This document shows, piece after piece, positions 9,898 through 42,782 of a DNA stretch of 64,000 nt (within the stretch, counting starts at the first letter, position 1; the number at the start of each line of letters is the position of its first letter). A program made the position numbers and the translations under genes. The DNA comes from a virus: positions 18,856 to 82,855 of IMG/VR virus record IMGVR_UViG_3300009164_005114, one strand, 5' to 3'. The notes beneath the pieces were generated by a model. It did not search any database. It was not told where the DNA came from and saw only the letters and a list, made by a program, of their open reading frames with translations.

Positions 9898-9998
9898 TAT
9901 TAAATTATTCTGTTACAGATTTATTTTATAGATAAATATTCAACATAAGTTGAAAAAACTTTACTTTTCAATAACTATTTATAAACGGTATGAATTAA

Positions 9999-16668: not shown

Positions 16669-17004
16669 ATGGCAATATTAAGAACAATCCCATCTACAAG
16701 ATTAATTAATGGGGAAATATTAGAAACTTCAGAAATTTCAATTGTGTCTGAAAGAGAATACTCAACTAACGGTGAGGAATGTGTTATCATTAGAAATGTA
16801 TTGGAGTCTACAGTTACTTTAAACTCAAAAACTACTGACCATATTGTCGTAAAGGCAATGACAAGGATAACAATCAAACCTGACACAGGCAAAATTGACG
16901 AAGACTATGATGAAATAGTTGCCGACAAATATGCCTGTATTGAGTTTAGATTTTGTGCTGGTAATTGGTATATCTTATCTTCAGACGGTCTCAAGAATTC
17001 CTAA
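16669..17004 (+). CDS. Hypothetical beta-rich protein
   Basis: ORF following the neck gene in the same orientation. Confidence 0.5.
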   Translation: MAILRTIPSTRLINGEILETSEISIVSEREYSTNGEECVIIRNVLESTVTLNSKTTDHIVVKAMTRITIKPDTGKIDEDYDEIVADKYACIEFRFCAGNWYILSSDGLKNS

Positions 17005-19710
17005 CTTTTCTTTCCACCCTTCTTCAGCTAATTCGTACATATAGTCAGGGTCTAAACCTCGTTTTTTCCAATATGACATTTCAGCATCTGTAATCGCTAA
17101 CACGTCCTCCAATTTATCTTGACCTGACTCGTCAAATGGTTGACCATTTATCAATTCACATTGTGCGGTTGTAAAGATACCTCTTTTTTCAGGGTCAGTA
17201 ACAATTAAACCATTTCTCACTTCATCCTTAAAACAAACTAATAACGGCTCAATTCTTTTATTAAAAGTGGTAATTGCTCTTGGGACATTATAATCACCTG
17301 TTAAATTAGGGTCATTGTCTAAAATGTCTTTATCTAACATATAACAATTAATTTGAACTCCATCCCCTTTCTTTTGAACATCTCCATGAGACGATTTAAG
17401 TCCATTATTAACATACATAATAACATCACCTAAACTTACGTTTAAATTTGATTGAAGAGCTAATTCCATGTGGGCCATTCTGCTCATACTATTACCCGAT
17501 TTAGTTTTTTCTGTTAAACGTTTTTTGTAATCATCCATACTTAGTTTAACTTTCGCCCTTTGAGCGATTTTACTTAACGGTATCTTTTTATCAAAAATTG
17601 TCTGTAAGTACTCATAGTAATATTCAACAAACGCCTTACCATTGCCTTCAAGTAACATTTTAACACCTTTATCCAAAAAGGCCTCAATATACAATGGAAG
17701 TTTCTTTGATTTAATACTATTACCCGTTAATTTGATTTTACCTTTGGCATCCATAACCGCATAGTTCTTACGAGCTAAGTTGATGGTAGAAGGCCATATA
17801 CCATCAGTATCAAGCGCCATCTCACCTCTCATGAATATATCATTATACTCGGCAACATCGGCTTCAGGCCCAAAATATTCTTTACCCTCTTTAACTTTCC
17901 AATTCAATCCACGACCAACATAAACTCTATCGTTTGCCTCATCAGGAGTTGAGAAGTTAACACCATCCGTATCCATTACCAACGGAACGTATCCTTTAGT
18001 CATGAAGAACTTAATCATCTGACGAAGGTATTGTCTACCTGTACAGGTAATCTGTTCACCCATATACATGTCACCCCAAGCATAAACCTGAGGAGCGGAT
18101 AATGCACCAAACATCGAGTTAATGAAAATCTTAATCGGTAACTGTTTATTACCATATGATTCAGACTTCTTACGGTCAACATTATAAAACTCTTCAGCAA
18201 GTTGTTTGTATTTGATACGGGTATTACGGAAGTAACTTAACATACCTTTCATTGCACCTGTTACATCACAGTCAGGAAATACATCATGTACTAACTGAAT
18301 AGAAGGGTATAGAGATGAGAAATCGAGTTTAAGTACGTTCTTACTATAACCAACCTTAAGTAGTCGTGAAAGACCTCCTACAAAGTCTGTCTTACCTTGT
18401 TTTTCTGGAATAGCGAGCCCATGCTTATAAGACCAAGCTAACATTAACATTTTCCATAATGTTGCAGTACCCATGGTTGAAACCCTTTCGTATGTTGTTG
18501 GAATCATCGCAGCCAACAAGAAGGAACCTTGGTTGAACTCTTGGTCCACCTTAAGGGTTTCATCTAGGTCATCGTCAAGATACATCTCTACTAACTTATC
18601 ACCTTTAATCTTATTGTATACGTCAGTACGTTTATCACAAATTTCATCAATTTTAGAATCCACACCAACTTTTTTGTAATTACCGTTTTTAGTGTTTAAC
18701 CAAAAGTCTTCTTTCTTTGAGTAGAATGGACCAATATCTAAATGGTCAATATAAACACGGTCAGGGGCTTCAGCATTAATATACTGAGTAATGTATTTCA
18801 ATCCCGCAGATTTAATACTTGAATTGATTGCTTGTGCTCTACGAACAGCATGAATAATATCAATTACATTATAACCCCAAATAGAAGTTTGAGTAAATGT
18901 CTCAACCTCATTCGCAAGTTTTAACATACTATCTTTTCTTGTGAATGAATGTTGAGGATGTAATGATTTACAAATCTTCTTAGGGTCTATCCCCAATATT
19001 TGACATCTTTCAAAAATCCAATGCCAGTCGAAATTTGCTGAGTTGTAACCACCAATAATACTTGGTTTTAATTCATTAATAACATTAAAGAATTCAATGA
19101 TGGCATTCTTTTCTTCTGCCTCATCCATACACTCAATAACTCGGTGATATCCTTTATTTGTTTTAATTCCAATCATGAAGATACGACCGTCCTTTGGTTC
19201 AAGAGCAGTCGTCTCTAAGTCATATACCATTCGGGTAACTTCTTCATAATTCTCAAATCCTTTAAATAATCTTTTTTCTTTAGAGATTAAGTATTGTTCT
19301 ACAGGAGGTAAAATCATTACTTTGTCTTTTGTTTTTTCACCCCATGGGTCACAACCACCTTCTCTAAAGAACTGAATAAGCTCTCTATATCCTTTAAGTG
19401 ATTTCACCATGAAAGTCATACCTTTTTGTAACCTTTCGTTACCGTGAGTTTCCAACTTCTCAATCATAATACCATGTTTGGACATGGCTTCTTTCTGAGC
19501 TGCTTTTGAATTACCGTAAAAGTTAATACCGCGTAAATCACCTACCCATGCAAATGGGGTAAACGTATCCTTACGGATTTCTTTTCCTTTACCAGGAATC
19601 TCTTTAATTTTGTAAATGGAGTTGGATGCGTAGTCAAATTCTATTGCTACAATAAATTCTTCGGGGTCATTCCCGTGCAAGAACGATTCAATTTCTTCGT
19701 TAGATATCAT
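16981..19710 (-). CDS. Family B DNA polymerase
   Basis: Exonuclease motifs YDLET and YNSANFD; polymerase motifs DFSSLYPS, KIFINSMFG and MDTDG. Confidence 0.95.
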   Translation of the reverse strand: MISNEEIESFLHGNDPEEFIVAIEFDYASNSIYKIKEIPGKGKEIRKDTFTPFAWVGDLRGINFYGNSKAAQKEAMSKHGIMIEKLETHGNERLQKGMTFMVKSLKGYRELIQFFREGGCDPWGEKTKDKVMILPPVEQYLISKEKRLFKGFENYEEVTRMVYDLETTALEPKDGRIFMIGIKTNKGYHRVIECMDEAEEKNAIIEFFNVINELKPSIIGGYNSANFDWHWIFERCQILGIDPKKICKSLHPQHSFTRKDSMLKLANEVETFTQTSIWGYNVIDIIHAVRRAQAINSSIKSAGLKYITQYINAEAPDRVYIDHLDIGPFYSKKEDFWLNTKNGNYKKVGVDSKIDEICDKRTDVYNKIKGDKLVEMYLDDDLDETLKVDQEFNQGSFLLAAMIPTTYERVSTMGTATLWKMLMLAWSYKHGLAIPEKQGKTDFVGGLSRLLKVGYSKNVLKLDFSSLYPSIQLVHDVFPDCDVTGAMKGMLSYFRNTRIKYKQLAEEFYNVDRKKSESYGNKQLPIKIFINSMFGALSAPQVYAWGDMYMGEQITCTGRQYLRQMIKFFMTKGYVPLVMDTDGVNFSTPDEANDRVYVGRGLNWKVKEGKEYFGPEADVAEYNDIFMRGEMALDTDGIWPSTINLARKNYAVMDAKGKIKLTGNSIKSKKLPLYIEAFLDKGVKMLLEGNGKAFVEYYYEYLQTIFDKKIPLSKIAQRAKVKLSMDDYKKRLTEKTKSGNSMSRMAHMELALQSNLNVSLGDVIMYVNNGLKSSHGDVQKKGDGVQINCYMLDKDILDNDPNLTGDYNVPRAITTFNKRIEPLLVCFKDEVRNGLIVTDPEKRGIFTTAQCELINGQPFDESGQDKLEDVLAITDAEMSYWKKRGLDPDYMYELAEEGWKEKLGILETV

Positions 19711-19797: not shown

Positions 19798-20175
19798 TTA
19801 ACAACAAGCAGTTTCTGAAATAAAACTTGGTTGAATATTAATATATAACTCTTCTCTAATAGGTAGAATCAAATTACCTTCGTCATTCTTAATTAAAAAC
19901 TGACCTACATATCGACCTGGGGTATTTGTATCCCTTGAACTAAATTTGAAATAAATATAATATTCGGGTTCAGCACCTAAAGGTAAAATTAAATTTACTA
20001 TTTCTGCAGGTGCCGACACAATTTTAGGAATTCCTGTTTCTACTTCTACCATAGTAAAAAAGATTGTTGAAACCGCCAAGTCCTCCATTAGTTGAAGATA
20101 TCCTGACCTTCCGTCTTTAACTACCTGCATTTTTAATACAGGGAGTGTTGCGTTTTGTTTGATAAAGAATTCCAT
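19798..20175 (-). CDS. BppU-N-like Ig-fold structural protein
   Basis: FFIKQNATLP.L ... Y.F...DT..PG.Y.GQF.I pattern. Confidence 0.5.
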   Translation of the reverse strand: MEFFIKQNATLPVLKMQVVKDGRSGYLQLMEDLAVSTIFFTMVEVETGIPKIVSAPAEIVNLILPLGAEPEYYIYFKFSSRDTNTPGRYVGQFLIKNDEGNLILPIREELYINIQPSFISETACC

Positions 20176-20191
20176 AACAATAAATATATTG

Positions 20192-21868
20192 TTATGACTC
20201 TTTTCTTAAACTTCTTTCGTAATGTTCAAACCTATCGTGTTCTGTTGGTGTCATAAGTAGTAAGCCAGGATATAAATTTCCTTCTTTAACTAACTGATAC
20301 ATATGACTCATCCATGTTTGTTCAAATGGGTGTGCCCAAGTTGTATCTAAAAACATTTTCTTATTACCTGTTCTGGTCACAATTTGTGGCCAGTTACAAT
20401 AATACACTTCACCCGTAACATAAGGTATACCTTGGAATGTTCTAATAGAATCATAAACAGCTTTAGGTGCATTTGGGTCAATACCTTGTTCAGGTAATCT
20501 ATTTTTACCTGGCCAATATTTTTCTCTAACCACTTGTGGTACATTATACCAAGACCACTGAGTACCATTATCACCAAAGAACTCACTAAAGTTTAACTTT
20601 AAAAAATCAAAGTTTTCTTTTTTTGCAATTTGTAATGTTTTTGAATATAAATTAGGAACATACCTATTAAACCCATTTCTACAAACATGACCTTCATTTG
20701 GATAGAAAAACATATCATCTTCAAAAAATAAATAAAAATCTAAATCGGTCTTTTCTTCAAAATGTTCGGCAATCCATTGTCTTCCACCACAAATACCTAA
20801 ATTATCTTTTTTAATGTGTTCAAATCCATATTCTTGACAAATTCTGGCGTAATCATCAAATGTGGATGTGTCGGTAGAATTATCCAATAAAAACTTTTTA
20901 GTTTTTATAATATAATCCTTATCATAAGCATTCATTGAATCAATTAATGTTTGAAATTGTTTTGGACTATTAAATGTGATGACATACAAACCAACTTTAT
21001 TAACATCTAAACTATTTGTAGATTTGTTAACATTTTCTGATTTAGGTGTAAGGTTATTATTCTTCAAGTCCTCAAAAAATTTACCAACTAAACCGTTAGA
21101 TTCAATTTCAAAATAATTTACCAAATCTGAATGTTTATAACACATAATACTGAAAATTGATTCTTCAGTACCCATATACCCTTCATCTAAAGTTGATTTT
21201 AATAATCCATAATAAATTCCGTTAATATCACCAATAGTGTGTTTTGGACCACCAAAGAACCCACCTCTTGCGACTTTATTAACTTTGGCACCCGCAATTG
21301 AATTTAACTTATTATATTCAAATCCGTGAATTTCATTTTCCGCATCGTAAGGAAAACAAACGAATGAAAATTTTGAAATGTATTTTGATAAATTATCCAA
21401 AACTTTATCATGAGTAAAATAACCTGGATGAACAGTATTAGTTAAACCACCATCAATCCAAAACATATATTCTGAATCAAACTGGTCCATTATTTTTGCA
21501 TCGTGTAGCAAAAATACTTTAGACATAACTAATGGATTATAATTTTCTAATCTACCTTGGGTTGATTCTTTTAACCATCCTGATAAATTAGCCCACTCAT
21601 CATTGGTTCTAATTTTTTGTATTTTATCAAAGAATTCAGAATCTCTAAACCATGATAATGGTCTAACAATAAATTGAGTATTTGATTGGTCTCTTCTTTT
21701 AAAAACAAACTCTTTTAATTCTTCATCACCAAAAATTATTAAGTTTTCCTCAACTTGTAATAATTTTTCAAATTGGTCTAAATAATGTTGGTAAGGTCTT
21801 GACCAACCTTCTGATAGTTCTCCTCTACCAATGTCCCATATACCTGTTACTAATGTTATATTACTCAT
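20192..21868 (-). CDS. HtrL/YibB (WlaTC)-family domain fused to a GT-A glycosyltransferase domain
   Basis: TLVTGIWDIGR, FWIDGG, GGFFGG and GTEESIF; second domain has NLGICGGRQ and FFEDD. Confidence 0.75.
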   Translation of the reverse strand: MSNITLVTGIWDIGRGELSEGWSRPYQHYLDQFEKLLQVEENLIIFGDEELKEFVFKRRDQSNTQFIVRPLSWFRDSEFFDKIQKIRTNDEWANLSGWLKESTQGRLENYNPLVMSKVFLLHDAKIMDQFDSEYMFWIDGGLTNTVHPGYFTHDKVLDNLSKYISKFSFVCFPYDAENEIHGFEYNKLNSIAGAKVNKVARGGFFGGPKHTIGDINGIYYGLLKSTLDEGYMGTEESIFSIMCYKHSDLVNYFEIESNGLVGKFFEDLKNNNLTPKSENVNKSTNSLDVNKVGLYVITFNSPKQFQTLIDSMNAYDKDYIIKTKKFLLDNSTDTSTFDDYARICQEYGFEHIKKDNLGICGGRQWIAEHFEEKTDLDFYLFFEDDMFFYPNEGHVCRNGFNRYVPNLYSKTLQIAKKENFDFLKLNFSEFFGDNGTQWSWYNVPQVVREKYWPGKNRLPEQGIDPNAPKAVYDSIRTFQGIPYVTGEVYYCNWPQIVTRTGNKKMFLDTTWAHPFEQTWMSHMYQLVKEGNLYPGLLLMTPTEHDRFEHYERSLRKES

Positions 21869-22748
21869 ATATTCTATTGAATTCTTCTAAAATTTTATAA
21901 AAACTTTTATTTAATGTGAACATTTCATCTGTCACTCCTGCGGGTGCATTATCTCTACACCACCAAATATCAAAATGTTTTCTTTCAAATAATTCTTTAT
22001 GATTGAAATACATTAAAGTCATAATTGGTTCTTCATGGTGTAAGTTCTTCGCATCTATTATAGTTTTTTCAGCATAATCTTCAAATAAATTTACAATTTC
22101 ATCCCACTTGTCTCTGTGACCTCCAAACAATCCACCAATAATATGAAGACTTCTATCATATTCTTTGTACCACTTAGGGTCTAAAGTTTGTGACCAAAAG
22201 TTTCTATCATTTTCTTTACCGAGTATTAAAAACTTATCACCAGTATCCTCAATCATGTTATGTAAAAAATCATTATTAAACAAACTACATTCATAGTATC
22301 TTTGCTCTGGATGAGTACCACTTAAATATTTTACAGGAACTAATCCACAATGAGATAAACCCGCATCAATCCAATAATAATAGTCGTAAGATTTATCTTC
22401 ATTCCACCACCAATGAAATTTAGAATATTGAATTTCAACACATCTATCAGATTTTTTAGTTTGCTCAACATTTTTATATTCTTTAATTAAATGTTGGAAT
22501 TTAGTTGTTGAAATATCAAAAATTTCAAACTTTAATTTCTCAGATGATATTGAATGTGTTTCGTAAAAGAATTTTTTTAATGGTTCTATTTCTCTTTCAG
22601 ACGTATAACATAAGAAATCTGCGTCGGTCATTTTTAAAAGAGATAATAAACTATAACTATAGTGACCCCCTCTATTCATTCTACCACCGTATTCGGTGCC
22701 ATACAAATCACTATAGATTGATGTGATAAATTTAACTTTAGTTGACAT
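21861..22748 (-). CDS. HtrL/YibB-like putative glycosyltransferase
   Basis: YYWIDAGL, IGGLFGG and EEPIM motifs, paralogous to the neighbouring gene. Confidence 0.65.
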   Translation of the reverse strand: MSTKVKFITSIYSDLYGTEYGGRMNRGGHYSYSLLSLLKMTDADFLCYTSEREIEPLKKFFYETHSISSEKLKFEIFDISTTKFQHLIKEYKNVEQTKKSDRCVEIQYSKFHWWWNEDKSYDYYYWIDAGLSHCGLVPVKYLSGTHPEQRYYECSLFNNDFLHNMIEDTGDKFLILGKENDRNFWSQTLDPKWYKEYDRSLHIIGGLFGGHRDKWDEIVNLFEDYAEKTIIDAKNLHHEEPIMTLMYFNHKELFERKHFDIWWCRDNAPAGVTDEMFTLNKSFYKILEEFNRIYE

Positions 22749-23472
22749 ATGTGAATTGATTGTGTTCTTTATTGTTTTTTAATTCTTGGGTTAATATTCC
22801 ACTTAAATATTGTGGTGGAATTTTACACGGACTATATAAATTCCAATTATAAGTTTGAGTGTAAAAATTATTGTATTGTCCTTGTGACACATCAGACCAA
22901 CTACTCATCTGAGGAGCCAATGGTAAAATTGGACAATAACTTTGTTTGATTGGTAATACAAATTGATAGATGTAATCATCAATTGCGTAGTACCCTAATT
23001 TTTCAGGTATTTCCATCTCTAATACATTATCATAGATTGAACTATGATAAATCATCATATTAGTTGCAAATATACCTCTTTCGTGTTCTTGTTTTGGGGG
23101 TAAATTTGTTATATCTAAAAACAAAGGTTGTTCTTTACTACGAAGAACAGGTCTGTTTAAAGTAGGAGAAAGATTGATAATACCATATTCAAATTCACCA
23201 CTTTCAGTTTCAATTTTATTAATTAAGTCTTTTGAGTATGGTAAAAAAGTACAATCATCTTCAATAACCATCACAGAGTCGTATCCCCTCTCTTTAGCAA
23301 GTTTAATAATTCCTGTATGAGATAAAGTACATCCTCCGTGATTGTTTAAATCAACAGCTTTAAATAATTCGTAATCCCATCCCATATAGTCCATCTCTTT
23401 TTGAATATGGTCTAATCGGTCAGGTCGTCTTTCTAAATTAACGACAAATTTGGGAATGTTGGTAATATTCAT
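22738..23472 (-). CDS. GT25-family glycosyltransferase
   Basis: VVNLERRPDRL, GCTLSH, VIEDD, AID. Confidence 0.8.
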   Translation of the reverse strand: MNITNIPKFVVNLERRPDRLDHIQKEMDYMGWDYELFKAVDLNNHGGCTLSHTGIIKLAKERGYDSVMVIEDDCTFLPYSKDLINKIETESGEFEYGIINLSPTLNRPVLRSKEQPLFLDITNLPPKQEHERGIFATNMMIYHSSIYDNVLEMEIPEKLGYYAIDDYIYQFVLPIKQSYCPILPLAPQMSSWSDVSQGQYNNFYTQTYNWNLYSPCKIPPQYLSGILTQELKNNKEHNQFTYVN

Positions 23473-24737
23473 TAACTAACGTGGTTGTGGGTTAATCTGC
23501 CTGTAATTCTATCACACCATCCTTTTGATTCTGAGTAAGGCCATACTACCCAGTAAGAAGGTAATTCATCTGTTTGGAATTCTCTCCACACTTTACAATA
23601 CTTATCAGGGTCTCTCATAAATCCTGCAATTTCATTCTTGTCTGCATCTTTTCTGTATAAAGTTTCGTCTTTATCGTTATGGAATGCAACAACCCAAAAA
23701 TCATAATCCGTTTCAGGTACTTGAGAATATCCGATATCAATACAATGTTTAAACATCATACAGAAACTATCTTTCCATTCTTGTTCTGTCTCAAAATTAT
23801 ATGGGTTTGGTGGATAGTTTTTATCTAAAGTATATTTGTCAATTGCTCTTTTTTGGAATAAGATACCTGCATATTTTTCATACTCGGTTAAAGTTCTAAC
23901 GGTACCAAAACCATAAGGACCATCATGACCTTCTTGAGTTTCACCATCCATACCAAATAATTTTCTATTTGTTAAATGAGATACTCTGTTTCTTTCACCC
24001 CAACCTTTGTCATCATCCCATTGTTTTGTTCTACCTTTACGAGTGTATTCGTGGTAAACAACAGGAATATGTGGGTGGAATAAATCATAACCCCAAGTGT
24101 AAGCTCTTGCAGCAATTGAAATTTCTTCTCCGTGGAAATAATATTCAGGGTTGTGCTGAACTTCAGTTGAGAATTGTCCTAATGTAAAACAGAAGTGAGC
24201 TGAGTAGAATCTTGATGTTACAGGTTTTTTTAAATCTTTCCAACCTGGAATTGTTTCAGGTAAGAAGAATACTGCACCTTCAGGAATGAATCGGTCAAAA
24301 ACCATTCTCCATGCATCAGGGGCTCTTCCTGCTGGGTCATTTTCGGGGTCAAAAGAAGGAACGTAGCCCGTAAGTAGAGGCTTCTTATACCCGTCCTTCT
24401 GTAACCCCTTTATCATTTTGATAAGGATATCGTCCCAATCCTTAACAAATCTCATGTGAGAATCTATTTGTAGTGTATAAGTTTCACCTTTGTAAAGTTG
24501 TTGAACTTGGTGTCTCGCCCAACAAACACCTTTAGAATCTTGATAAGGAATATCTAAAATTCTAAATCTTTTGTCGTTTTTATACTCATCTAAATTATCA
24601 AAACCGTCTTCTTCACTGTATTGTCTTGCAATACCGAAAACTAAGTTATTTGGTTTTTTGGCGTTTTCCAACATGTCTTTAATTGTTGGGATTAACTGCG
24701 GGTCTCTGTATGAGGCAATTTGGATAAAAATCTTCAT
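23472..24737 (-). CDS. GT60-like polypeptide (Thr/Ser/Hyp) alpha-GlcNAc transferase
   Basis: IFIQIASYRD, GVCWAR, LQIDSHMRF..DWD, FHGEE...AAR..T.GYDLFHP, YGFGTVRTL. Confidence 0.85.
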   Translation of the reverse strand: MKIFIQIASYRDPQLIPTIKDMLENAKKPNNLVFGIARQYSEEDGFDNLDEYKNDKRFRILDIPYQDSKGVCWARHQVQQLYKGETYTLQIDSHMRFVKDWDDILIKMIKGLQKDGYKKPLLTGYVPSFDPENDPAGRAPDAWRMVFDRFIPEGAVFFLPETIPGWKDLKKPVTSRFYSAHFCFTLGQFSTEVQHNPEYYFHGEEISIAARAYTWGYDLFHPHIPVVYHEYTRKGRTKQWDDDKGWGERNRVSHLTNRKLFGMDGETQEGHDGPYGFGTVRTLTEYEKYAGILFQKRAIDKYTLDKNYPPNPYNFETEQEWKDSFCMMFKHCIDIGYSQVPETDYDFWVVAFHNDKDETLYRKDADKNEIAGFMRDPDKYCKVWREFQTDELPSYWVVWPYSESKGWCDRITGRLTHNHVS

Positions 24738-24762
24738 GTATGTTATATTTTACCCTAAAAAT

Positions 24763-24794
24763 AAAAAACCCTCCACGAAGGTGAAGGGTTTTTT
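24763..24794. terminator. Bidirectional intrinsic terminator-like hairpin
   Basis: AAAAAACCCT-CCAC-GAAG-GTGA-AGGGTTTTTT. Confidence 0.65.
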
Positions 24795-24818
24795 ACATAT
24801 ATTAATTTTCTTTTTTTA

Positions 24819-25919
24819 TTAACATCCGTTAGGGTCAGAAGCGGTAATTAAACCAGCTCCACCACTAACTAAATACCATGCAGTACCGTTAGAATAATAA
24901 CCATCTGCCGCCACAATTGATAATCCTGTGTTAACATATAATGTCTCACCAATGTTAGGTCCAGGTCCTTGAGATGCTGGTACATAAAGTGTGTTAGGTG
25001 CTGAACTAAAGTCGGTACATGCTAAATTTGATGTTGAACCTGTTCCCAGAATATAAGTATAATATCCGAATGTTGCGGTAGGTGTTGTAGTTACTGTAGG
25101 TGTGTTAGTTGGAGTTGAAGTATGAGTTGGTGTTGGAGTTTGTGTTGGTAATAATGAACATAATGAGAATCCTCCTGTTTCATTACCATTTGAATTTAAT
25201 TGAACTACTTGTCCTGAGTTTGAATAGCAACCTGTCATATTAACAGTTACTGGTCCGTATACTAAATTAAAGAATTGTGTATTTTCATCAAAGTTTGCAA
25301 GTTCACCATAAATTGTTATTGATGGTGATGCGTTACATGCATCATTACTTGTTAAACCTGTTGAAACTGAGAACGAAAATCTTGCTCTTGTTGGTGTAGG
25401 TGTGTTAGTTGGTGTTTCAGTTTGAGTCGGAGTTGGTGTAACTGCCGCAGTTCCTGTTTGTGTTGGAGTCGCAGTTAATGTTGTTGTGGTTGTTGGTGTT
25501 TGAGTTGGTGTTTCCGTATTAGTTGGAGTTGGTGTATTAGTTGGAGTTGCAGTTAATGTAGTTGTCGTTGTTGGTGTTTGAGTTGGTGTCTCCGTATTAG
25601 TTGTAGTTGGAGTTGGTGTAGGTGTTGTTCCAGGCGTTTGAGTATTTGTTGGTGTTAAAGTTGGTGTTGGAGTTGCGGTCTTTGTCGGAGTTGGGGTACT
25701 AGTTGGATAATACATTGGATATGCTCCATTATTAACCAATACCACACTATTAACAAATGACGGTGCAATTGAATAAGTGTTGTTTATTAACCAAATATTT
25801 TTTGTTTGGTTTGGTAATAACTCAACTTGGTATTCCCACATTGAATCGTCACATCTTCTATAATTGAAGTTTACAACGGTTGAACCCGTGTTTGTTAAGG
25901 TATATTTGCTACATGCCAT
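24819..25919 (-). CDS. Thr/Pro-repeat mucin-like virion protein A
   Basis: Long TPT(N/Q/E)T tracts between small Cys-containing beta domains; no signal peptide; TATTTAT motif upstream. Confidence 0.75.
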
Positions 25920-26003
25920 CTTGATTTCTTTTTATAATATAAATACTAAGTATTTGTTTATTAGATTCAATATTTCTAATTTTTTATTTTTTTAATTTTG
26001 TTC

Positions 26004-27755
26004 TTAGCACCCATTAGGGTCAGAACTTCCAATTTGACCTAAACCACCACTAACTAAGTACCATGCAGTACCATTAGAATAGTAACCATCCGCGGCTGGT
26101 GTTGTTAATGAAGTATTAACATATAAGTACTCGCCAACATTAGGACCAGTCCCTTGAGATACTGGTGCATAAAGAGTATTAGGGGCGGAACTAAAGTCAG
26201 CACACGCGGTGTTTGTTGTTAATCCCGTACCTAAAATATATGTGTAATACCCAAATGTTGCTGTAGGTGTTGTTGTTGGTGTAGGTGTTGGAGTTTGAGT
26301 TAAAAGTGAACATAATGAGAATACTCCTACATAGTTACCGTTAGAGTCTAACTCAACTACTTGTCCTGAATTTTTATAATAACCTGTCATATTCACCGTC
26401 ACTGGTCCATAAAGAGAATTAAAGAATTGCGTATTTTCGTCAAAGTTTACAAATTCACCATAAATTGTTATTGAAGGTGACGCATCACACGCATCGTATT
26501 GAGTGGTCCCTGTTGAAACTGAGAACGAGAATCTTGTTCTTGTTGGTGTTGGAGTTTGAGTTGGTGTTTCGGTATTAGTTGGTGTTTGAGTTTGAGTTGG
26601 TGTTTTGGTATTAGTTGGTGTTTGAGTTGGTGTTTGAGTTGGTGTTTCCGTGTTAGTTTGTGTAGGTGTTTGAGTTTGAGTCTCAGTATTTGTAGGTGTT
26701 TGTGTAGGTGTTTGAGTTTGAGTCTCAGTATTTGTAGGTGTTTGTGTAGGTGTTTGAGTTTGAGTCTCAGTATTTGTAGGTGTTTGCGTTTGTGTTGCAG
26801 TATTACTTGGGGTTTGGGTAGGTGTAGGTGTTTTTGTTGAAGTATTAGTTGGTGTTGCAGTTGGAGTTGGTAAAGGACATCCTCCTAATAATACAATATT
26901 ACCATCACCATATGCAATTTGAATTGTTTCCGCACAATAAATTTGAGTTGTAAATACATCTAAGAAGAAATCAAATTCAAACCCATCACAATCAATACCA
27001 ACAAAAGTTGTTTGATTTTGAGTTCCACCAAACAATAAATAAGTTTTACATATTGAATTAGTAGGTGTTTGAGTTTGAGTTGGTGTTAATGTCGGAGTAT
27101 TAGTTGAAGTTTCTGTGTTAGTTGGTGTTAAAGTTTGTGTAGGTGTTTGAGTTGGAGTTTCCGCAGCAGTCCCTGTATTTGTAGGTGTATTTGTTGGCGT
27201 TTCCGTGTTAGTTGGTGTAGTTGTTGGGGTTGAGGTGTTAGTCGTGGTATTACTAGGTGTGTTTGTTGGAGTTTCCGTGTTAGTTGGAGTTGCTGTAGGA
27301 GTTAATCCAATAGTAACAGATGGGGTTGGTGTCATTGTTTCGGTTGGAGTTTGAGTTGGGGTTTCAGTTGTTGTTGAGGTTGGAGTAACTGTTGAGGTTA
27401 CTGTTGCGGTTGGTGTTACTGTTGCAGTTGACGTAGGAGTTAATGTAGGAGTTTCCGTAGGTGTTGGCGTTAATCCTTCTGTTTGAGTTGGAGTTTGAGT
27501 TGGAGTTGAAGTGTTGGTTGGTGTATTTGTTTGAGTTGGCGTAGGACTAGGTGTTGGACCTGGAACATTTAATGTGTAGGTATAACCATAAGTTGGTACA
27601 TATAAATCATAGATACCGTAATAATAACTAGATATATAGTTAAACGGAATTATTTGCGTTCCCAAATCAATAGTACCTCCCGTGTCTGGAAAATACGTAA
27701 CTTGTGAGGTTTGCCCACTTAAATTATCACTTTCAATTCTTATTCCTAATGCCAT
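26004..27755 (-). CDS. Thr/Pro-repeat mucin-like virion protein B
   Basis: Three TPT tracts; C-terminal module paralogous to protein A (both end SDPNGC). Confidence 0.75.
   Translation of the reverse strand: MALGIRIESDNLSGQTSQVTYFPDTGGTIDLGTQIIPFNYISSYYYGIYDLYVPTYGYTYTLNVPGPTPSPTPTQTNTPTNTSTPTQTPTQTEGLTPTPTETPTLTPTSTATVTPTATVTSTVTPTSTTTETPTQTPTETMTPTPSVTIGLTPTATPTNTETPTNTPSNTTTNTSTPTTTPTNTETPTNTPTNTGTAAETPTQTPTQTLTPTNTETSTNTPTLTPTQTQTPTNSICKTYLLFGGTQNQTTFVGIDCDGFEFDFFLDVFTTQIYCAETIQIAYGDGNIVLLGGCPLPTPTATPTNTSTKTPTPTQTPSNTATQTQTPTNTETQTQTPTQTPTNTETQTQTPTQTPTNTETQTQTPTQTNTETPTQTPTQTPTNTKTPTQTQTPTNTETPTQTPTPTRTRFSFSVSTGTTQYDACDASPSITIYGEFVNFDENTQFFNSLYGPVTVNMTGYYKNSGQVVELDSNGNYVGVFSLCSLLTQTPTPTPTTTPTATFGYYTYILGTGLTTNTACADFSSAPNTLYAPVSQGTGPNVGEYLYVNTSLTTPAADGYYSNGTAWYLVSGGLGQIGSSDPNGC
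26658..26786. repeat. 42-bp coding tandem repeat, about 3 copies
   Basis: Unit TTGTGTAGGTGTTTGAGTTTGAGTCTCAGTATTTGTAGGTGT, encoding TPTNTETQTQTPTQ on the minus strand. Confidence 0.85.
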
Positions 27756-27788
27756 GTCAATAAATACTTAATTTTTTTGTTTTATTCT

Positions 27789-29795
27789 TTAAACTATACG
27801 ACCAATTCCATTTATTACTACATATCTCAAATCGTTTTGAGGTATTAAAATATATTCCAAATCATCATCAGGTATTAATAAATAAACCAAATCTTCATCT
27901 GGAATTACTACATATGTCAAATCATTTTGAGGAACAATAATCGCACAATCAGGGCAAATAGGATTTAATAATCCATATTTATTTTTTAATAATTTAAAGT
28001 TGTGTTTAATTTGTGATGCATTGAGAGGTTCTGTATACATTCTAAACGCACTAATGTCACCAATCATACTACCCCCAAAAATTTCTTCTAATCTAACATG
28101 AGTTGTAAGACCCGAATATTCTGTGTGGTCTAAATCGTATGTCGTTAAACACTCAGGGTCTTGTTGGTAAACAATCTCGTTTATATTTGGAGGACATCCT
28201 CCTGAGAATGTTAAATTATCGTGAAGTCCTTGAGTACCTCCACCTATTGAAATGTTATATCCAACGCCAATTTGTTTTTCTTTTGGAGTGTTAAGTAACC
28301 TTGGGATAATTTCTTCAAAATTTTCTGTGACCATGAACAATTTACCATTAACATAGAATTTTAATGTTCCCATTCTATATTTTTGCTCTTCAGTCCACAT
28401 GTCAGTAAATGTTACAACCTCAGTTGTTGCTGGGTCATAACTTGGGTCATGAGTTATTGGAGGTTCAATTAAACTAACACTTCTACCTTCAATAGTTGCA
28501 AAATAAACATCTTTAACTAAAAGACCTAATCCACCTTTATCATATAAATCACAAGTATCTAACCATTCATATCTTTGGAAAACCGCATCAATTTGAACCC
28601 AATGTTCCAAATTAATATATGGTGTTAATTTACATTCATCAAAAATCCCTCTTGTTGAACACCATTCAGTTACTGAAGTCCCTGTTACATATGTTAAACC
28701 TGTAAGACAAGTTCCAGTGTGTTCACACCCACCAGTAATTCTATATGTCTTAACACATAATCTTGGGTTTCCACTATCACCACTAAGTCTTAATGATAAA
28801 CCATTTGAAACTCCATCATACAATGGGTCTGTTTCAGGGTATTGCGCCTTTGAATCACAATCACAAGGACAACCACAAGTACAATGCGTTATTGTGCCAC
28901 CCGATGGTTGGTAAACTTGTAAACATTCTGATGATGTGTTTGCCGAACTTGCACAACCACAAGTATGCATACAAGTTAATCCTGACGTAACTCTTGTATA
29001 TCCAGTATCTTGTATTGGACTTCCGTCGGCGTAATGGTAATATTTGTTTTCAGCTCTTGCCCCCATATAAAAGAAGGTACCTTTATTATCAGGATATCTT
29101 TCATTCAATCCCACAGAAGTATCACCAGTCCACCTATATCTTAACATGAACTCGGTTGTCCAACCTAAAGGAACTCTTTGAGGAAATACTTGATAATCAT
29201 AACCTGGTACTTTGTAGAATCCTTGGAAGAACCCTCCATTTAATTTCGCAACATACCCAATATTTCCACCAACATTTTGGTAAGATAAGTCGTAATTATA
29301 GGAATTATCATTCCATAATCTATTTTCAGTTGTTGTAAAACCTGTGATTGGGTGGAGTTTCATTCTCCTATCGTATTTGTATCTACTAAATCTATCAGAT
29401 ACATTTTCATATAAACCAGTAGTAATTTCAATAGTTTCTCCTGACATATGTTGAACCAAACCATTATCCATACCTGTTAATCCAATGTCACATAACTCTG
29501 TAGTTTTTACACAAAAATTTGGATTGATGTCTTCAGGGTTCCAATAGTTTTCAGAAACAATTGTTTGATAATCAAAAGAACACGCAGATATTTGGCATAA
29601 TGTTGTTCCAGTGCTATTAAATTCAAATTTAAATGGCATTCTATTTCCATCTTCCTCACCTATTAATAGTGGAGAAAATATAACTTCTTGGTCATAGTCT
29701 TTTTCATCCGACGCTAAACAAATATCGGTTACTTCGTTGACTGGTTTAAGACCCCAACGTCTAAAATTATATTGATTAATATTCTGATATGCCAT
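27789..29795 (-). CDS. Cys-rich structural protein with a LamG/ConA-like domain
   Basis: LKFYVNGKL ... IGGGTQ ... GDISAFRMYTEPL...IKHNF pattern; CTCGCPCDC cluster. Confidence 0.6.
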   Translation of the reverse strand: MAYQNINQYNFRRWGLKPVNEVTDICLASDEKDYDQEVIFSPLLIGEEDGNRMPFKFEFNSTGTTLCQISACSFDYQTIVSENYWNPEDINPNFCVKTTELCDIGLTGMDNGLVQHMSGETIEITTGLYENVSDRFSRYKYDRRMKLHPITGFTTTENRLWNDNSYNYDLSYQNVGGNIGYVAKLNGGFFQGFYKVPGYDYQVFPQRVPLGWTTEFMLRYRWTGDTSVGLNERYPDNKGTFFYMGARAENKYYHYADGSPIQDTGYTRVTSGLTCMHTCGCASSANTSSECLQVYQPSGGTITHCTCGCPCDCDSKAQYPETDPLYDGVSNGLSLRLSGDSGNPRLCVKTYRITGGCEHTGTCLTGLTYVTGTSVTEWCSTRGIFDECKLTPYINLEHWVQIDAVFQRYEWLDTCDLYDKGGLGLLVKDVYFATIEGRSVSLIEPPITHDPSYDPATTEVVTFTDMWTEEQKYRMGTLKFYVNGKLFMVTENFEEIIPRLLNTPKEKQIGVGYNISIGGGTQGLHDNLTFSGGCPPNINEIVYQQDPECLTTYDLDHTEYSGLTTHVRLEEIFGGSMIGDISAFRMYTEPLNASQIKHNFKLLKNKYGLLNPICPDCAIIVPQNDLTYVVIPDEDLVYLLIPDDDLEYILIPQNDLRYVVINGIGRIV

Positions 29796-29804: not shown

Positions 29805-29832
29805 ATAAATACCTTGTGTCCTAGTATTTATA
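29805..29832. promoter_or_regulatory. Divergent pair of TATTTAT putative late promoters
   Basis: ATAAATA at 29805-29811 serves the minus-strand gene and TATTTATA at 29825-29832 the plus-strand gene; the motif recurs upstream of at least 19 genes. Confidence 0.6.
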
Positions 29833-31142: not shown

Positions 31143-31436
31143 ATGGCACAACAAACAACAGTTGATTTAAACCAAAATGAACCAAACGCAATGACAGCAA
31201 TTGCAGAACAAGAAAGAGCTAAATTGATTCCTAAAAACGATTATAATCAAGCGGGTAATCCTTATTCTTCTGTAAACAAAGATGCGGTTGCCGATGGTGA
31301 CTCTATGGGTAGAGGTACAGGCTCTTTTTTAGATGTTTATAACGTAAACGCGGGAACGATAGATGATATCGTGGAAAGAAAAAGTGAGGTAAAAATCAAT
31401 CAATACAATTCATCAAAAACATACCCTAATTTCTAA
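31143..31436 (+). CDS. Hypothetical protein
   Basis: 97-aa ORF within the operon. Confidence 0.55.
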   Translation: MAQQTTVDLNQNEPNAMTAIAEQERAKLIPKNDYNQAGNPYSSVNKDAVADGDSMGRGTGSFLDVYNVNAGTIDDIVERKSEVKINQYNSSKTYPNF

Positions 31437-31915
31437 TGAAACTACAAGGAGCATTAAAAGGTTTAATTTGTGAAATCGCGTCTTTAGATGGTATTGTCGA
31501 TGCTATTAAAGGACGAAAAGTTGTTATTATTTATTACGATGGTGATGAACCAGGTGGTAGAGGACTAAGACAAATTGAGCCAGTATGCTTAGGAGTTAGT
31601 AAAGCGGGTAATAAAGTTTTAAGAGCTTGGGATTCAGAGGGGTCGTCTCACACTGCTTATGAAGGAGACCAACCATTACCAGGGTGGAGATTATTTAGGT
31701 TAGATAAAATTCTATCTAACAAACCTACGGGTGAGGTTTACAATGAACCCAAACCTGGTTATAATTTTAACGGAGACAAAAGTATGGTTAGTGTTATTAT
31801 TAATGCTAAGTTTGATAATACACCACCACAACCTCAAACGCCACCAACACCACAACCTGAAACACCACCAACACCTGAAACTCCACCAACACCAGAAGAA
31901 GAAAATTTAACATAA
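31436..31915 (+). CDS. Stand-alone WYL-domain protein with a Pro/Thr/Glu tail
   Basis: AIKGRKVVIIYY...R.IEP..LG...LRAW...WRLFRLDKI. Confidence 0.75.
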   Translation: MKLQGALKGLICEIASLDGIVDAIKGRKVVIIYYDGDEPGGRGLRQIEPVCLGVSKAGNKVLRAWDSEGSSHTAYEGDQPLPGWRLFRLDKILSNKPTGEVYNEPKPGYNFNGDKSMVSVIINAKFDNTPPQPQTPPTPQPETPPTPETPPTPEEENLT

Positions 31916-32612: not shown

Positions 32613-33827
32613 ATGTCAAAAATTAAAATCTTAGTAGTACCATCCGACAGAACTGGTGTCGGAAAATTTAGGTCAGTCGACCCTCACGTATTCTTACAAA
32701 ACTTGTATGGAGACGAATTCCATGTAGATATAGTTTATGAAGTTCCTTATGAGGATATGAAATTTTGGTCTCAGTATCAAATTGTTTCATATCATAGAAG
32801 TATTGGTCCTGATTTTGATAAATCACATGAACTTATTCAAAAATTAAATTCATTAGGAATTATCACTGTTTGTGATATTGATGATTATTGGATGCCAGGA
32901 AGAGAGCACCCAATTCATGATATTATTAGAGTAAATAAGATTAATGAAAAAATTGTTGCAAGTCTTAGAGTTTCACAATATGTGACAACTACAACAAATA
33001 TTTTTGCAGATGAAATCAGAAAAATAAATAAAAATGTTTCTGTTTTTCCAAATGCAATTAACCCTAATGAACCACAATTTAAAGAACCTACTTTAGAATC
33101 AGATAGATTGAGGATTGGTTGGCTAGGGGGTTCTTCTCACTTACACGACATTCAGTTATTAGACCAATCTTTTGGTAGAATGACATCCGCTAAAGATAAG
33201 GTACAATTTGTATTGTGTGGATTTGATACAAGAGGTAGTGTTACCGAAATTAATCAACAAACAGGTGAACACAAAAGAAGAGATATTTTACCTCATGAAA
33301 CTGTTTGGGCTCAATACGAAAAAATATTTACACAAAATTATTCTATAGTTTCTGAAGATTATAAAAAACATCTATTAAATTATAATCAATTACCTTATGA
33401 AAATGAGGCGAATGAGGCTTATATTAGAGTATGGACAAAACCTGTTACATCTTACGCTAAGAATTATTCAAAATTTGACGTATCTTTGTCTCCAATCAAA
33501 AACAATATGTTTAATAGAATGAAGTCTCAATTAAAAGTTATTGAAGCTGGATTCTATAAGAAAGCCCTTATTGCTTCAGATTTGGGGCCATATACCATAG
33601 ATTTAAAACACTGTTTAAATCATGGTAATTTTGTTGATGGTAACGCACTTTTAGTTGATGAAAAAAGAAATCATTCTGATTGGGCGAAATTTATTGACAA
33701 ACTTATTAAAAACCCAAATATGGCAAAAGACATGGGTGAAAGATTATATGAAACCGTTAAAGACACATATGACTTAAATATTGTAACAAAAAGTAGAGCA
33801 GAATTTTACAAATCTTTAATTAAATAA
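32613..33827 (+). CDS. GT-B (GT4-like) glycosyltransferase
   Basis: DIDDYW, RIGWLGGSSH..D, FNRMKSQLKVIEAG, IASD.GPY. Confidence 0.8.
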   Translation: MSKIKILVVPSDRTGVGKFRSVDPHVFLQNLYGDEFHVDIVYEVPYEDMKFWSQYQIVSYHRSIGPDFDKSHELIQKLNSLGIITVCDIDDYWMPGREHPIHDIIRVNKINEKIVASLRVSQYVTTTTNIFADEIRKINKNVSVFPNAINPNEPQFKEPTLESDRLRIGWLGGSSHLHDIQLLDQSFGRMTSAKDKVQFVLCGFDTRGSVTEINQQTGEHKRRDILPHETVWAQYEKIFTQNYSIVSEDYKKHLLNYNQLPYENEANEAYIRVWTKPVTSYAKNYSKFDVSLSPIKNNMFNRMKSQLKVIEAGFYKKALIASDLGPYTIDLKHCLNHGNFVDGNALLVDEKRNHSDWAKFIDKLIKNPNMAKDMGERLYETVKDTYDLNIVTKSRAEFYKSLIK

Positions 33828-33830
33828 CAA

Positions 33831-34532
33831 ATGATAAACATACCATTAACCAAAATTTTATTCTTGGATATTGAAACTGTGGGTATTCAACCTGATTGGG
33901 AGTCTCTTGAGTCTAATAGACCTGAGTTGGCATTCCAATTTAAAAATTACCACGATTGGTTTCAAAAAAGATTTCCTGAGGATGCAGATAAACCTGTAGG
34001 AGATATGTTTGTAAACCGAGCAGCATTAGTTCCTGAATTTGCAAGAATAGCATGTGTTAGCGTTGCCTTTGTTACAGATAAAGGTGAAACTAAAATGCAA
34101 TCTTTTAGTGACCCTGATGAGAAAAAATTATTACAAGATGTTCAAAAATTATTGTACCGAGTTGGGGAGTTGGGATTCTTTTTATGTGGTCATAATGTTA
34201 AAGGGTTTGATATCCCTATGATGGCAAAAAGAATGATTATGAATGGAATTCTTCCACCAAAAATATTACCAGGTCATGATACTAAACCATGGGAAATTAA
34301 AGCTCTTGATACTAAAGAACTTTGGCAATATGGTGGTTACGGGTCAATCGCATCATTAGAATTAATGTGCGTTTGTTTAGGTGTTGAATCTTCTAAAAAC
34401 ATGGAAGTAACAGGTAATAAAGTTCACGAAGCATTTTGGGTTAAAAAAGATATTAAAGGTATTGTTGAATATTGTGAAAAAGATGTATCTGTTTTAATTG
34501 ATGTAATAAATAAACTATTAAAATTAAAATAA
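33831..34532 (+). CDS. Stand-alone PolB-like 3'-5' exonuclease (DEDD)
   Basis: FLDIET, GHNVKGFDIP, YCEKDV. Confidence 0.85.
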   Translation: MINIPLTKILFLDIETVGIQPDWESLESNRPELAFQFKNYHDWFQKRFPEDADKPVGDMFVNRAALVPEFARIACVSVAFVTDKGETKMQSFSDPDEKKLLQDVQKLLYRVGELGFFLCGHNVKGFDIPMMAKRMIMNGILPPKILPGHDTKPWEIKALDTKELWQYGGYGSIASLELMCVCLGVESSKNMEVTGNKVHEAFWVKKDIKGIVEYCEKDVSVLIDVINKLLKLK

Positions 34533-35125: not shown

Positions 35126-35135
35126 AAAATAAATA

Positions 35136-39333: not shown

Positions 39334-39334
39334 A

Positions 39335-41977: not shown

Positions 41978-41978
41978 C

Positions 41979-42779: not shown

Positions 42780-42782
42780 AAT

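Follow-up and report, generated by a model that had tools for sequence, protein, structure and literature searches.

A freshwater jumbo phage that probably sugar-coats its own fibre-like proteins

Enzymes of GT60 and GT27, two families in which a DxH metal-binding motif replaces DxD, O-glycosylate Ser/Thr residues of polypeptides (PMC7185993). Glycosylation of phage particles has also been described: the mycobacteriophages Che8 and Rita use their own glycosyltransferases (GTs) to decorate structural proteins in the host cytoplasm, which provides a glycan shield, with the C-termini of the major capsid and tail tube subunits as acceptors (Freeman et al. 2023, as cited in PMC11256854 and PMC12619734). 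Virions of the Xanthomonas jumbo phage XacN1 contain PAS-positive glycoproteins, whose synthesis the authors credit to ORF328/ORF334 (Yoshikawa et al. 2018, PMC5852040). The preliminary description of the locus studied here knew of no phage pathway of its form. This novelty is tempered because mycobacteriophage virion glycosylation has been published and the XacN1 ORF334 proposal exists (PMC5852040); what stands is that no description of GT60 or mucin-type glycosylation in phages or bacteria was found in the literature searched.

The cassette analysed here comes from a freshwater jumbo myovirus. The window, i.e., the whole stretch of DNA that was analysed, spans 64,000 nucleotides (positions 18,856 to 82,855 of IMG/VR record IMGVR_UViG_3300009164_005114) of an 83-kb contig that is ~28% complete; one complete relative measures 309 kb. 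The co-oriented run of genes reported earlier at 19798-29795 is indeed present, and consists of eight ORFs that are all located on the minus strand (Table 1). In the phage's own clade the gene order is kept as p668, one to three Thr/Pro (TP) ORFs, GT60, variable GTs, HtrL558, g125 and PolB, with a TP region of ~3 to 8 kb. All eight block proteins are free of signal peptides and hydrophobic segments (Kyte-Doolittle means over 19 residues peak at ≤1.29). The absence of membrane segments from all eight implies that enzyme and acceptor are in one compartment and, together with the lack of signal peptides, fits a cytoplasmic reaction. A further sugar and GT cluster of 19 kb, without an obvious acceptor, is located at 32613-51296.

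Table 1. Positions in the window of the genes and sequence elements of the cassette
Feature	Position	Strand	Remarks
TATTTAT motif 5' of p668	29805..29811	-	Candidate late-type promoter element
p668	27789..29795	-	Conserved ~650-aa body protein
TATTTAT motif 5' of TP583	27760..27766	-	
TP583	26004..27755	-	Modular, 30% Thr; three Thr/Pro tracts between small globular modules
TATTTAT motif 5' of TP366	25939..25945	-	
TP366	24819..25919	-	Three small beta-rich modules joined by disordered Thr/Pro tracts
Terminator-like hairpin + T-run	24768..24782	-	Between TP366 and GT60
GT60 (PF11397) glycosyltransferase	23472..24737	-	Soluble, DxH motif D92-S-H94
GT25 glycosyltransferase	22738..23472	-	Variable slot: replaced/absent in many relatives
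p295	21861..22748	-	295 aa; weak HtrL-like GGxFGG...EE motif
HtrL558	20192..21868	-	N-terminal HtrL_YibB domain + probable GT2-like GT-A C-terminal half
TATTTAT motif 5' of g125	20180-20186		
g125	19798..20175	-	125 aa; stand-alone copy of the domain heading Thr/Pro-tract proteins in relatives

The central enzyme, which we propose to be the initiating polypeptide O-glycosyltransferase, had previously been assigned to GT60 on the basis of short motifs. This assignment is firmly supported by the profile search against PF11397 (222.6 bits, cut-off 21; E 1.3e-65) and by the match to phrog_24687 (E 9.8e-168), and 4584 relatives were found at E≤1e-3. The motifs themselves fall on conserved columns of an alignment of 32 diverse GT60 relatives, in which D92, H94, F201, E204 and E205 are invariant and I7, A8, Y10, R11 and D12 nearly so. 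The phage protein also has a conserved, subfamily-specific C-terminal region of ~120 aa. No relative was found among PDB sequences by single-sequence or profile searches. PF11397 is rare, being present in one of 401 sampled Bacteroidota genomes, which is the query genome itself. There is no support for a route via Hyp because a 2OG-oxygenase (PF13640) is absent from the complete relative G406.

The two signal-less Thr/Pro-tract proteins of the preliminary description are confirmed by their composition, the positions of their tracts and the absence of a hydrophobic segment. TP583 contains 177 Thr and 67 Pro in 583 aa, with tracts at residues 58-238, 291-418 and 479-506, and TP366 contains 93 Thr and 39 Pro in 366 aa, with tracts at residues 65-187 and 251-288 that connect modules at residues 1-66, 178-255 and 283-366. 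The two C-terminal modules of TP583 are 71% identical to their TP366 counterparts, and its gene has tandem DNA repeats, including 3.1 perfect copies of 42 bp at 26656-26786. In the AlphaFold model of TP366 the modules reach a pLDDT of ~90 and the linkers stay below 50; fold comparison of the modules gave no clear or informative match (best Z 5.1), and none of the 673 metagenomic homologues of this protein has a name. The long, clustered, tandem-repeat and disordered Thr/Pro tracts characteristic of mucin-type acceptors are therefore present, as judged from the composition of TP583/TP366, the tandem DNA repeats and the linker pLDDT of TP366. In a stricter Thr/Pro screen of the 83-kb contig TP583 and TP366 were the only T/P-rich ORFs, and a looser screen with a 30-aa window also picked up the Pro/Thr tail of a 159-aa ORF (31436-31915).

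The other enzymes of the block differ in how well they can be assigned. GT25 matches PF01755 above the cut-off, in two stretches (E 5.7e-12; 46.4 bits, cut-off 24), as expected from the earlier assignment. Of the two genes that had been called HtrL/YibB-like, HtrL558 holds, with residues 3-252 matching PF09612 (E 5e-21; 75.9 bits, cut-off 24.1). It does not reach the NCBIfam equivalog cut-offs (84 vs 264.9) and is thus placed in the family, but not among the orthologues of YibB. The C-terminal half of the window protein has no match to PF00535, but the Saprospiraceae orthologue (63% identical) passes this profile (26.7 bits vs 23.3), which points to a probably GT2-like C-terminal half. Across lineages, no partner accompanies GT60 more constantly than HtrL558. 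The likeness of the second gene, p295, is weaker: Pfam and NCBIfam searches gave no match, and there is one local BLASTP match to HtrL558 (49 residues, E 0.001). The XacN1 block contains homologues of p295, and Gemmatimonadaceae have them as fusions with NTP_transf_5.

Two flanking proteins had been given domain names that we could not confirm. The 'LamG-like' p668 has no Pfam match even at E 10, its AlphaFold model is unusable (pLDDT 28), and a language-model lead (Atlas; feature 0.94, cluster with 36% LamG_3) is all that points in this direction. The protein has 1416 homologues, many of them longer and with PF13385 or PF03382; PF13385 is confined to C-terminal extensions of some of these longer homologues. 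Relatives carry variable C-terminal tips (LamG_3, DUF285), sometimes after a Thr/Pro linker, and TP-linked forms occur in L058 and L051. The p668 of the window ends in four IPxxDLxY-type repeats, and its gene has a 30-bp tandem repeat at 27813-27925. Likewise, the 'BppU-like' g125, a putative anchor domain, has no match in Pfam or PHROG searches, and a profile search of PDB sequences yielded nothing better than E 0.68, with unrelated proteins. The tract partners of the cassette in relatives also include p668- and g125-type proteins. With a g125 domain at the head of TP-tract proteins and variable tips on p668, the proteins of relatives are built like fibre or receptor-binding proteins.

In the 50 nt 5' of genes no heptamer is more frequent than TATTTAT (17 of 76; reverse complement 7), although as a short AT-rich word it is not enriched overall (40 found vs 48.7 expected). 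It precedes the tail tube, sheath, p668, TP583, TP366 and g125 genes, but not GT60. The label 'virion proteins', which TP583 and TP366 had received, is one that we infer from this motif, common to tail genes, and from the module architecture. The terminator-like hairpin divides the proposed substrate genes from the enzyme genes. Exact matches to TP366, TP583, GT60/GT25 and HtrL558 are present in contigs from three lake metatranscriptome libraries, which may stem from carried-over DNA.

Because the pairing of GT60 with Thr-rich proteins recurs in unrelated phages and bacteria, it is probable that the phage coats fibre-like proteins of its own with sugar. After clustering at 70% identity, a tract ORF is located within 2.5 kb of GT60 in 8 of 16 informative clusters. 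As background, tract genes account for 7 of 304 genes (~2%) in the complete relative and for none of 252 ORFs over 180 kb in a Saprospiraceae contig; in high-GC DNA the tract criterion is unspecific, with 17 matches per 100 kb in Lewinellaceae. Chromosomal GT60 genes of Saprospiraceae and Bacteroidia have a divergent neighbour whose product carries a TAT-like N-terminus (RRxALK) together with S/T/P repeats and a domain for T9SS sorting, and these loci also contain a sulfotransferase; the Lewinellaceae locus has the same architecture as that of Saprospiraceae. Directly 5' of GT60, Gemmatimonadaceae encode a protein with a PqqD domain and an S/T/P tail, and Arcticibacterium a 422-aa (T/S)P(T/S) protein; in Scytonema the gene of a (PT)n protein is 1.8 kb away on the 5' side. 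In groups of viral and metagenomic contigs at 38-41%, 53% and 59% identity, TP ORFs are ~50 nt to 1.6 kb away. Thus, the expected co-occurrence does recur in unrelated phage and bacterial lineages, and the idea that GT60 primes the Thr tracts gains from this linkage as well as from the enzyme family, but adjacency is not universal. A tract neighbour is absent in a 17-locus phage group (64-68% identity) and several other GT60 lineages, and in XacN1 and Xoo-sp13 the closest tract, ~8 kb from GT60, is a PT linker of 30 aa within a protein of 3313 aa. In related phages TP-tract proteins are also located 70-85 kb from GT60, and up to ~130 kb in one relative, which shows that tracts are frequent in these genomes. 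Inherited synteny may account for part of the linkage. It should be noted that PT linkers are widespread and do not require a glycan.

These exceptions are what would be expected if the tracts were ordinary flexible linkers of hypervariable fibres or adhesins, the GT60/HtrL block had another target, such as further virion proteins (capsid, tail) or a glycan that is soluble or lipid-linked, and proximity reflected a common fast-evolving accessory region. Distant TP-tract proteins in relatives, GT60 lineages without a tract neighbour, the second sugar and GT cluster without an obvious acceptor, and the fact that it is chiefly through LOS/LPS core loci that HtrL_YibB and GT25 are known (PMC4172580) all favour such an explanation. 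We nevertheless regard it as rather unlikely: the islands in bacterial chromosomes encode little besides the tract protein, GT60, HtrL-GT2 and sulfotransferase, the pairing recurs across differing gene orientations and tract-protein architectures, the block shows no lipid-carrier transferase, flippase or polymerase, and polypeptide glycosylation is the precedent for GT60 (PMC7185993).

Two further explanations concern other targets. It seems improbable that the module acts during infection on host proteins or the host surface, such as S/T/P-rich T9SS glycoproteins, in superinfection exclusion or receptor masking, and leaves the phage proteins unmodified. Saprospiraceae chromosomes encode a GT60 that is 70% identical to that of the phage, together with HtrL558, beside a secreted S/T/P protein, which suggests exchange between the phage and a Bacteroidota host, and that suitable host proteins exist. 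However, the phage's own tract proteins are abundant and directly beside the enzyme, each with the upstream motif. More improbable still is that the GTs hypermodify phage DNA (glycosylated hydroxymethyl-pyrimidines) in the T-even manner. The position of the block, which abuts PolB, would fit this, relatives have a gene of the thymidylate-synthase family whose product may act as a hydroxymethylase, there is a faint, sub-threshold TAGT match on the C-terminal half of the Saprospiraceae HtrL558 orthologue, and diverse phage GTs are documented to glycosylate DNA (cited in PMC12619734). Against it, the same GT60/HtrL pair adjoins a secreted-protein gene in bacterial chromosomes, and no hydroxymethylase was found on this 28% complete contig. 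Moreover, to our knowledge GT60 is not a family of DNA glycosyltransferases.

On balance, we lean towards the view that the cassette combines hypervariable, modular Thr/Pro-tract proteins with a soluble module that would glycosylate them, giving fibre-like appendages. In the pathway that we infer, including its enzyme-substrate relation, sugar, linkage, extension and virion location, GT60 would move the first sugar from a host UDP-sugar to Thr of the disordered TPTxT tracts in the cytoplasm of the infected cell. By family precedent, this sugar would be an alpha-linked HexNAc. Extension of the glycan would then fall to the tightly linked HtrL_YibB/GT2-like protein, together with the slot of GT25 and p295 that varies between strains, and the resulting stiff, densely glycosylated linkers would keep the small beta-sandwich modules away from the particle as fibre-like appendages. 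A broader view, which we hold tentatively and at somewhat less than even chances, is that GT60 and HtrL_YibB/GT2 form an unrecognised prokaryotic module for cytoplasmic mucin-type O-glycosylation of S/T/P tracts, acting on TAT-like/T9SS surface proteins in Bacteroidota and PqqD-fused peptides in Gemmatimonadaceae, and captured by jumbo phages for a bottle-brush glycocalyx, possibly mimicking host surface glycoproteins. If true, mucin-type O-glycosylation, so far tied to eukaryotic GT27/GT60, would reach bacteria and their viruses, and abundant freshwater jumbo phages would have a self-made glycan coat on hypervariable appendages, with a bearing on host recognition, protease resistance, particle stickiness and grazing in lakes. 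Glycoengineering would then also gain a compact soluble enzyme set that glycosylates Thr/Pro linkers in the bacterial cytoplasm.

Among known systems, a close phage counterpart is that of XacN1, in which ORF334, for which a role in virion glycosylation was proposed, is a GT60 homologue (46% identical) followed by homologues of p295 and HtrL558. The XacN1 block differs in containing a carbamoyltransferase and in having no adjacent tract protein, and its glycoproteins are known as PAS-positive bands, not by protein name. In the same search XacN1 PolB had no detectable match to the PolB of the window; the XacN1-type block has therefore probably been exchanged horizontally. In contrast to the mycobacteriophages, the candidate acceptors here are separate modular proteins with mucin-like tracts of 120-180 residues, and initiation would rely on another enzyme family; no S/T/P tract occurs in the tail tube ORF (5206-5694) of this contig, which has no capsid gene.

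GT60 activity is defined as retaining transfer of GlcNAc from UDP-GlcNAc to Ser/Thr or Hyp in polypeptides. The protist GT60 enzymes, the polypeptide alpha-GlcNAc transferases Dictyostelium Gnt1/Gnt2 and Trypanosoma cruzi OGNT, have family PF11397 and the DxH motif in common with the phage enzyme, whose proposed acceptors would likewise be Thr/Pro-rich mucin-type tracts and which, like Gnt1, is predicted to be soluble, without a membrane anchor. Unlike these, it is phage-encoded, has the extra conserved C-terminal region and is coupled to an HtrL_YibB/GT2-like protein, which we know of no protist GT60 system to use. Chloroviruses and mimivirus are eukaryotic giant viruses that encode the glycosylation of their own capsid or fibrils and use other GT families and acceptor proteins, with atypical N- or O-linkages. 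Their likeness to the phage lies in virus-borne nucleotide-sugar enzymes, for which the second sugar and GT cluster may be compared, and soluble GTs that operate without lipid-carrier machinery.

The source contig is 82,855 bp long and has 31% GC and an estimated completeness of 28% (CheckV), with genes for the tail tube, the tail sheath and the baseplate hub at 4.4-9.9 kb. Since freshwater metagenomes of many studies contain near-identical DNA and a complete relative measures 309 kb, the phage is a jumbo myovirus of fresh water. Eight co-oriented ORFs occupy its minus strand, read from 29795 to 19798: p668, the two signal-less Thr/Pro-tract proteins TP583 and TP366, GT60 (421 aa), GT25 (244 aa), p295, the 558-aa protein HtrL558 and the 125-aa protein g125. 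As computed from sequence, all eight proteins lack hydrophobic segments. Megablast detected nothing similar to this 10-kb region among cultured phages, and no relatives like the Xanthomonas jumbo phage XacN1 were found among cultured phages for the family-B DNA polymerase (PolB) of the window; viral relatives of P0208 were not found.

The assignment of GT60 is unambiguous, as the enzyme scores 222.6 bits in the PF11397 HMM check, far over the cut-off of 21, and matches phrog_24687 with an E-value of 1e-167. The three motifs by which the preliminary description had recognized it coincide with invariant or nearly invariant columns in an alignment of 32 relatives (36-49% identity); they include D92-S-H94, the DxH motif that GT60 and GT27 have in common (PMC7185993). 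According to PMC7185993, GT60 is reported from prokaryotes and protists only and belongs with GT27 to the families that glycosylate Ser/Thr of polypeptides. Sequence and profile searches with GT60 against the PDB found nothing. The GT25 label was borne out by a PF01755 match that passes the cut-off, while one of the two genes described as HtrL/YibB-like proved to be so: residues 3-252 of HtrL558 pass PF09612, but p295 is weakly HtrL-like. Pfam gives no match for the C-terminal half of HtrL558 itself, but the Saprospiraceae orthologue, which is 63% identical to HtrL558, passes Glycos_transf_2. The HtrL_YibB family is uncharacterised and has been linked to LOS loci (PMC4172580). A profile search of the complete 309-kb relative did not find PF13640, and a hydroxyproline route is therefore unsupported.

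Thr makes up 25% of TP366 and 30% of TP583, and the Thr/Pro tracts comprise 123 and 38 residues in the former and 181, 128 and 28 residues in the latter. By a stricter Thr/Pro screen the contig has no other T/P-rich ORF; a looser window criterion adds a third tract-bearing ORF, which encodes a 159-aa protein at 31436-31915 (+) with a Pro/Thr/Glu/Gln-rich tail, PQPQTPPTPQPETPPTPETPPTPEE. The two C-terminal modules of TP366 are 71% identical to those of TP583. The tracts are encoded by tandem DNA repeats, including 3.1 perfect copies of 42 bp, and a freshwater DNA run contains many skip and go-back joints inside them, which fit either strain-to-strain variation in repeat length or assembly ambiguity among strains. 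The AlphaFold model of TP366 has three confident small beta-rich modules with disordered tracts between them. The likeness of TP366 to known folds is that of a generic small beta-sandwich, with no nameable family (Foldseek best E 0.4; VIA-align best Z 5.1), and an Atlas search with its C-terminal modules gave 0.82, under the useful range.

The observation of the block as a whole is real, except for three peripheral labels, namely that of p295 and those of the two outermost genes. For p668, described as LamG-like, and g125, described as BppU-like, PDB sequence and profile searches were empty, and the AlphaFold model of p668 was unusable. The 1416 relatives of p668 that were found have a ~650-aa body in common and differ in their C-terminal tips (LamG_3, DUF285), which in some are preceded by a TP linker, and in relatives, TP-tract proteins begin with the g125 domain. 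In locus L143, DUF285/BspA-like repeats come after the g125 domain. In phage fibres and receptor-binding proteins, a linker usually joins a conserved N-terminal domain to a variable distal module. The heptamer TATTTAT is the commonest within 50 nt upstream of the contig genes (17 of 76, and 7 for its reverse complement), and 21 of its 46 occurrences on the contig lie inside the non-coding 3.4%. It stands upstream of the tail tube, tail sheath and an adaptor-like gene, as well as of p668, TP583, TP366 and g125; GT60 has no upstream TATTTAT and is preceded by a terminator-like hairpin. Because this word is the commonest upstream heptamer and is common to tail and TP genes, it is a candidate late-type promoter element, albeit a short, AT-rich word without overall enrichment on the contig. 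The sharing of TATTTAT and the domain architecture of p668 and g125 lend indirect support to the view that the TP proteins may be virion parts. Contigs of three lake metatranscriptome libraries, which could include DNA carry-over, match pieces of TP366, TP583, the GT25/GT60 junction, HtrL558 and PolB with zero mismatch and at low depth; p668 is not covered by these contigs, which is no sign of silence.

Features of the window and of GT60 loci in other genomes (locations without a prefix refer to the window)
Feature	Location	Strand	Remarks
TATTTAT, examples	5731-5737, 9932-9938, 20180-20186, 25939-25945, 27760-27766, 29805-29811	-
Family-B DNA polymerase (PolB)	16981-19710
Tandem repeats, perfect or near-perfect	26656-26786 and 25462-25610		42-bp and 78-bp, inside Thr/Pro tracts
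Nucleotide-sugar and glycosyltransferase cluster, 19 kb	32613-51296	+	Large, soluble; GT4-like, GT2_5+GT4 fusion, UDP-Glc dehydrogenase, two GT2, methyltransferase, UDP-galactopyranose mutase, GT10, GT11, epimerase/reductase, DegT-family enzyme, GDP-mannose dehydratase, PhoH, GT1, GT2
g125 domain heading Thr/Pro-tract proteins	L143:12530-15235, L146:12240-13214, L149:12387-13622, L172:14257-14844		Tandem paralogues in places
Four-gene island, Saprospiraceae MAG chromosome	L085:4349-11092		Sulfotransferase (PF13469), S/T/P protein, divergent GT60 and HtrL_YibB-GT2
Gemmatimonadaceae MAG cluster	L093:4233-9269		PqqD-domain protein has an internal RRR-hydrophobic segment
Second cluster, four Thr/Pro-tract proteins (772, 822, 505, 324 aa)	G406:C1:72783-88723		~70-85 kb from GT60

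IMG/VR yielded 339 GT60 relatives, and the best 80 of these (85-94% identity) share one gene order, namely p668, TP ORFs, GT60, variable GT slot, HtrL558, g125 and PolB. In this clade the TP region varies from about 3 to 8 kb, and the TP proteins are 40-60% identical, compared with 85-90% for their neighbours. As the clade is one lineage, this is evidence of hypervariability and not of independent linkage. GT60 and HtrL558 also occur together in XacN1 and a second Xanthomonas jumbo phage, Xoo-sp13 (46-49% identity), in most further viral contigs, and in contigs of MAGs labelled Saprospiraceae/Bacteroidia (~70%), Lewinellaceae (61%) and Gemmatimonadaceae (52-55% identity), these names being the labels of the MAG contigs.

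Scans of IMG/VR, GTDB and JGI provided the neighbourhoods in other lineages. The Saprospiraceae locus L085 is truly chromosomal, as uvrB, a BamA-like gene and NAD kinase lie close by; the S/T/P protein of its island has an RRxALK TAT-like N-terminus, ~10 S/T/P repeats and a T9SS sorting domain, and a neighbour of this type is present also in L083, L084, L087 and the Lewinellaceae locus L089. Since a cytoplasmic GT adjoins a gene with a TAT-type signal, the Saprospiraceae arrangement suggests that glycosylation may precede export. In five Gemmatimonadaceae loci (L090, L091, L092, L093 and L095), a PqqD-domain protein with a C-terminal S/T/P tail is encoded directly 5' of GT60; before it come an HprK-like ORF without Pfam match and the gene of a protein in which NTP_transf_5 and a p295-like domain are fused. 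The cluster resembles a peptide-modification (RiPP-like) one. In Arcticibacterium, a GT60 of 305 aa (33% identity) comes after a 422-aa protein of which ~300 residues are (T/S)P(T/S), and in Scytonema a (PT)n protein is encoded 1.8 kb upstream of GT60. Groups of viral and metagenomic contigs with 38-41%, 53% and 59% identity have their tract ORFs ~50 nt to 1.6 kb away from GT60. Among 401 Bacteroidota genomes surveyed with PF11397, no new loci turned up.

The co-occurrence of GT60 with T/P genes that the preliminary description had anticipated stood in part. When all recovered GT60 ORFs were clustered at 70% identity, a tract ORF was present within 2.5 kb in eight clusters, which include unrelated lineages, but was lacking in eight others, and four were uninformative. 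As background, the complete 309-kb relative has such tracts in 7 of its 304 genes, and 180 kb of the same Saprospiraceae contig have them in 0 of 252 ORFs; for the Gemmatimonadaceae genome the figure is 2 per 100 kb. In the Lewinellaceae genome (62% GC) the tract criterion is unspecific, and neighbour architecture was used there instead of a count. No tract protein adjoins GT60 in XacN1 and Xoo-sp13, where the nearest tract, a single PT linker of 30 residues, belongs to ORF325 (3313 aa), ~8 kb off and after baseplate wedge genes. Nor is there a tract ORF within 7 kb in a 17-locus phage group (64-68% identity), except in one member (4.6 kb upstream). Further tract proteins are found 70-85 kb from GT60 in related genomes, and up to about 130 kb in one relative; the second tract cluster of the complete relative sits among large unannotated proteins. 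Over the whole records of XacN1 (AP018399.1) and Xoo-sp13 (MN047793.1), a TPTxTPT-coding pattern has 51 matches each, spread across several large genes, and the reversed control pattern has none. In the block of the Xanthomonas phages, the gene of a 765-aa carbamoyltransferase (L001/L002, 11390-13706) separates GT60 from the p295 homologue, a hint that the sugars there may be carbamoylated.

With recurrent and partly independent gene linkage now behind it, the interpretation proposed initially appears plausible: GT60 would prime Thr of the disordered tracts in the cytoplasm, HtrL558 and the variable GT25/p295 slot would extend the glycan, and the TP proteins would become glycosylated appendages. 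Judging from gene content and neighbourhood, we lean slightly towards this reading as a whole. The sugar cluster of the window could supply and extend glycans for the TP-protein acceptors. The tracts may instead be plain linkers, with the enzymes serving some other acceptor, a reading that we consider rather unlikely. That host proteins or the host surface are the target seems very improbable. Least probable is phage DNA as the target: relatives do carry a thymidylate-synthase-family gene, but the GT60 islands in bacteria speak against it.

In the literature searched, nothing relevant was found on GT60 or PF11397 together with phage. Virions of XacN1 have PAS-positive bands, for which the authors proposed ORF328 and ORF334, the GT60 homologue, as the makers (PMC5852040), and O-glycosylation of virions by phage GTs is established for the mycobacteriophages Che8 and Rita, as cited in PMC11256854 and PMC12619734. 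The proposed system of the window would be a variant of known phage/viral self-glycosylation, and it is a possibility that a prokaryotic GT60/HtrL mucin-type system is common to Bacteroidota, Gemmatimonadaceae and jumbo phages.
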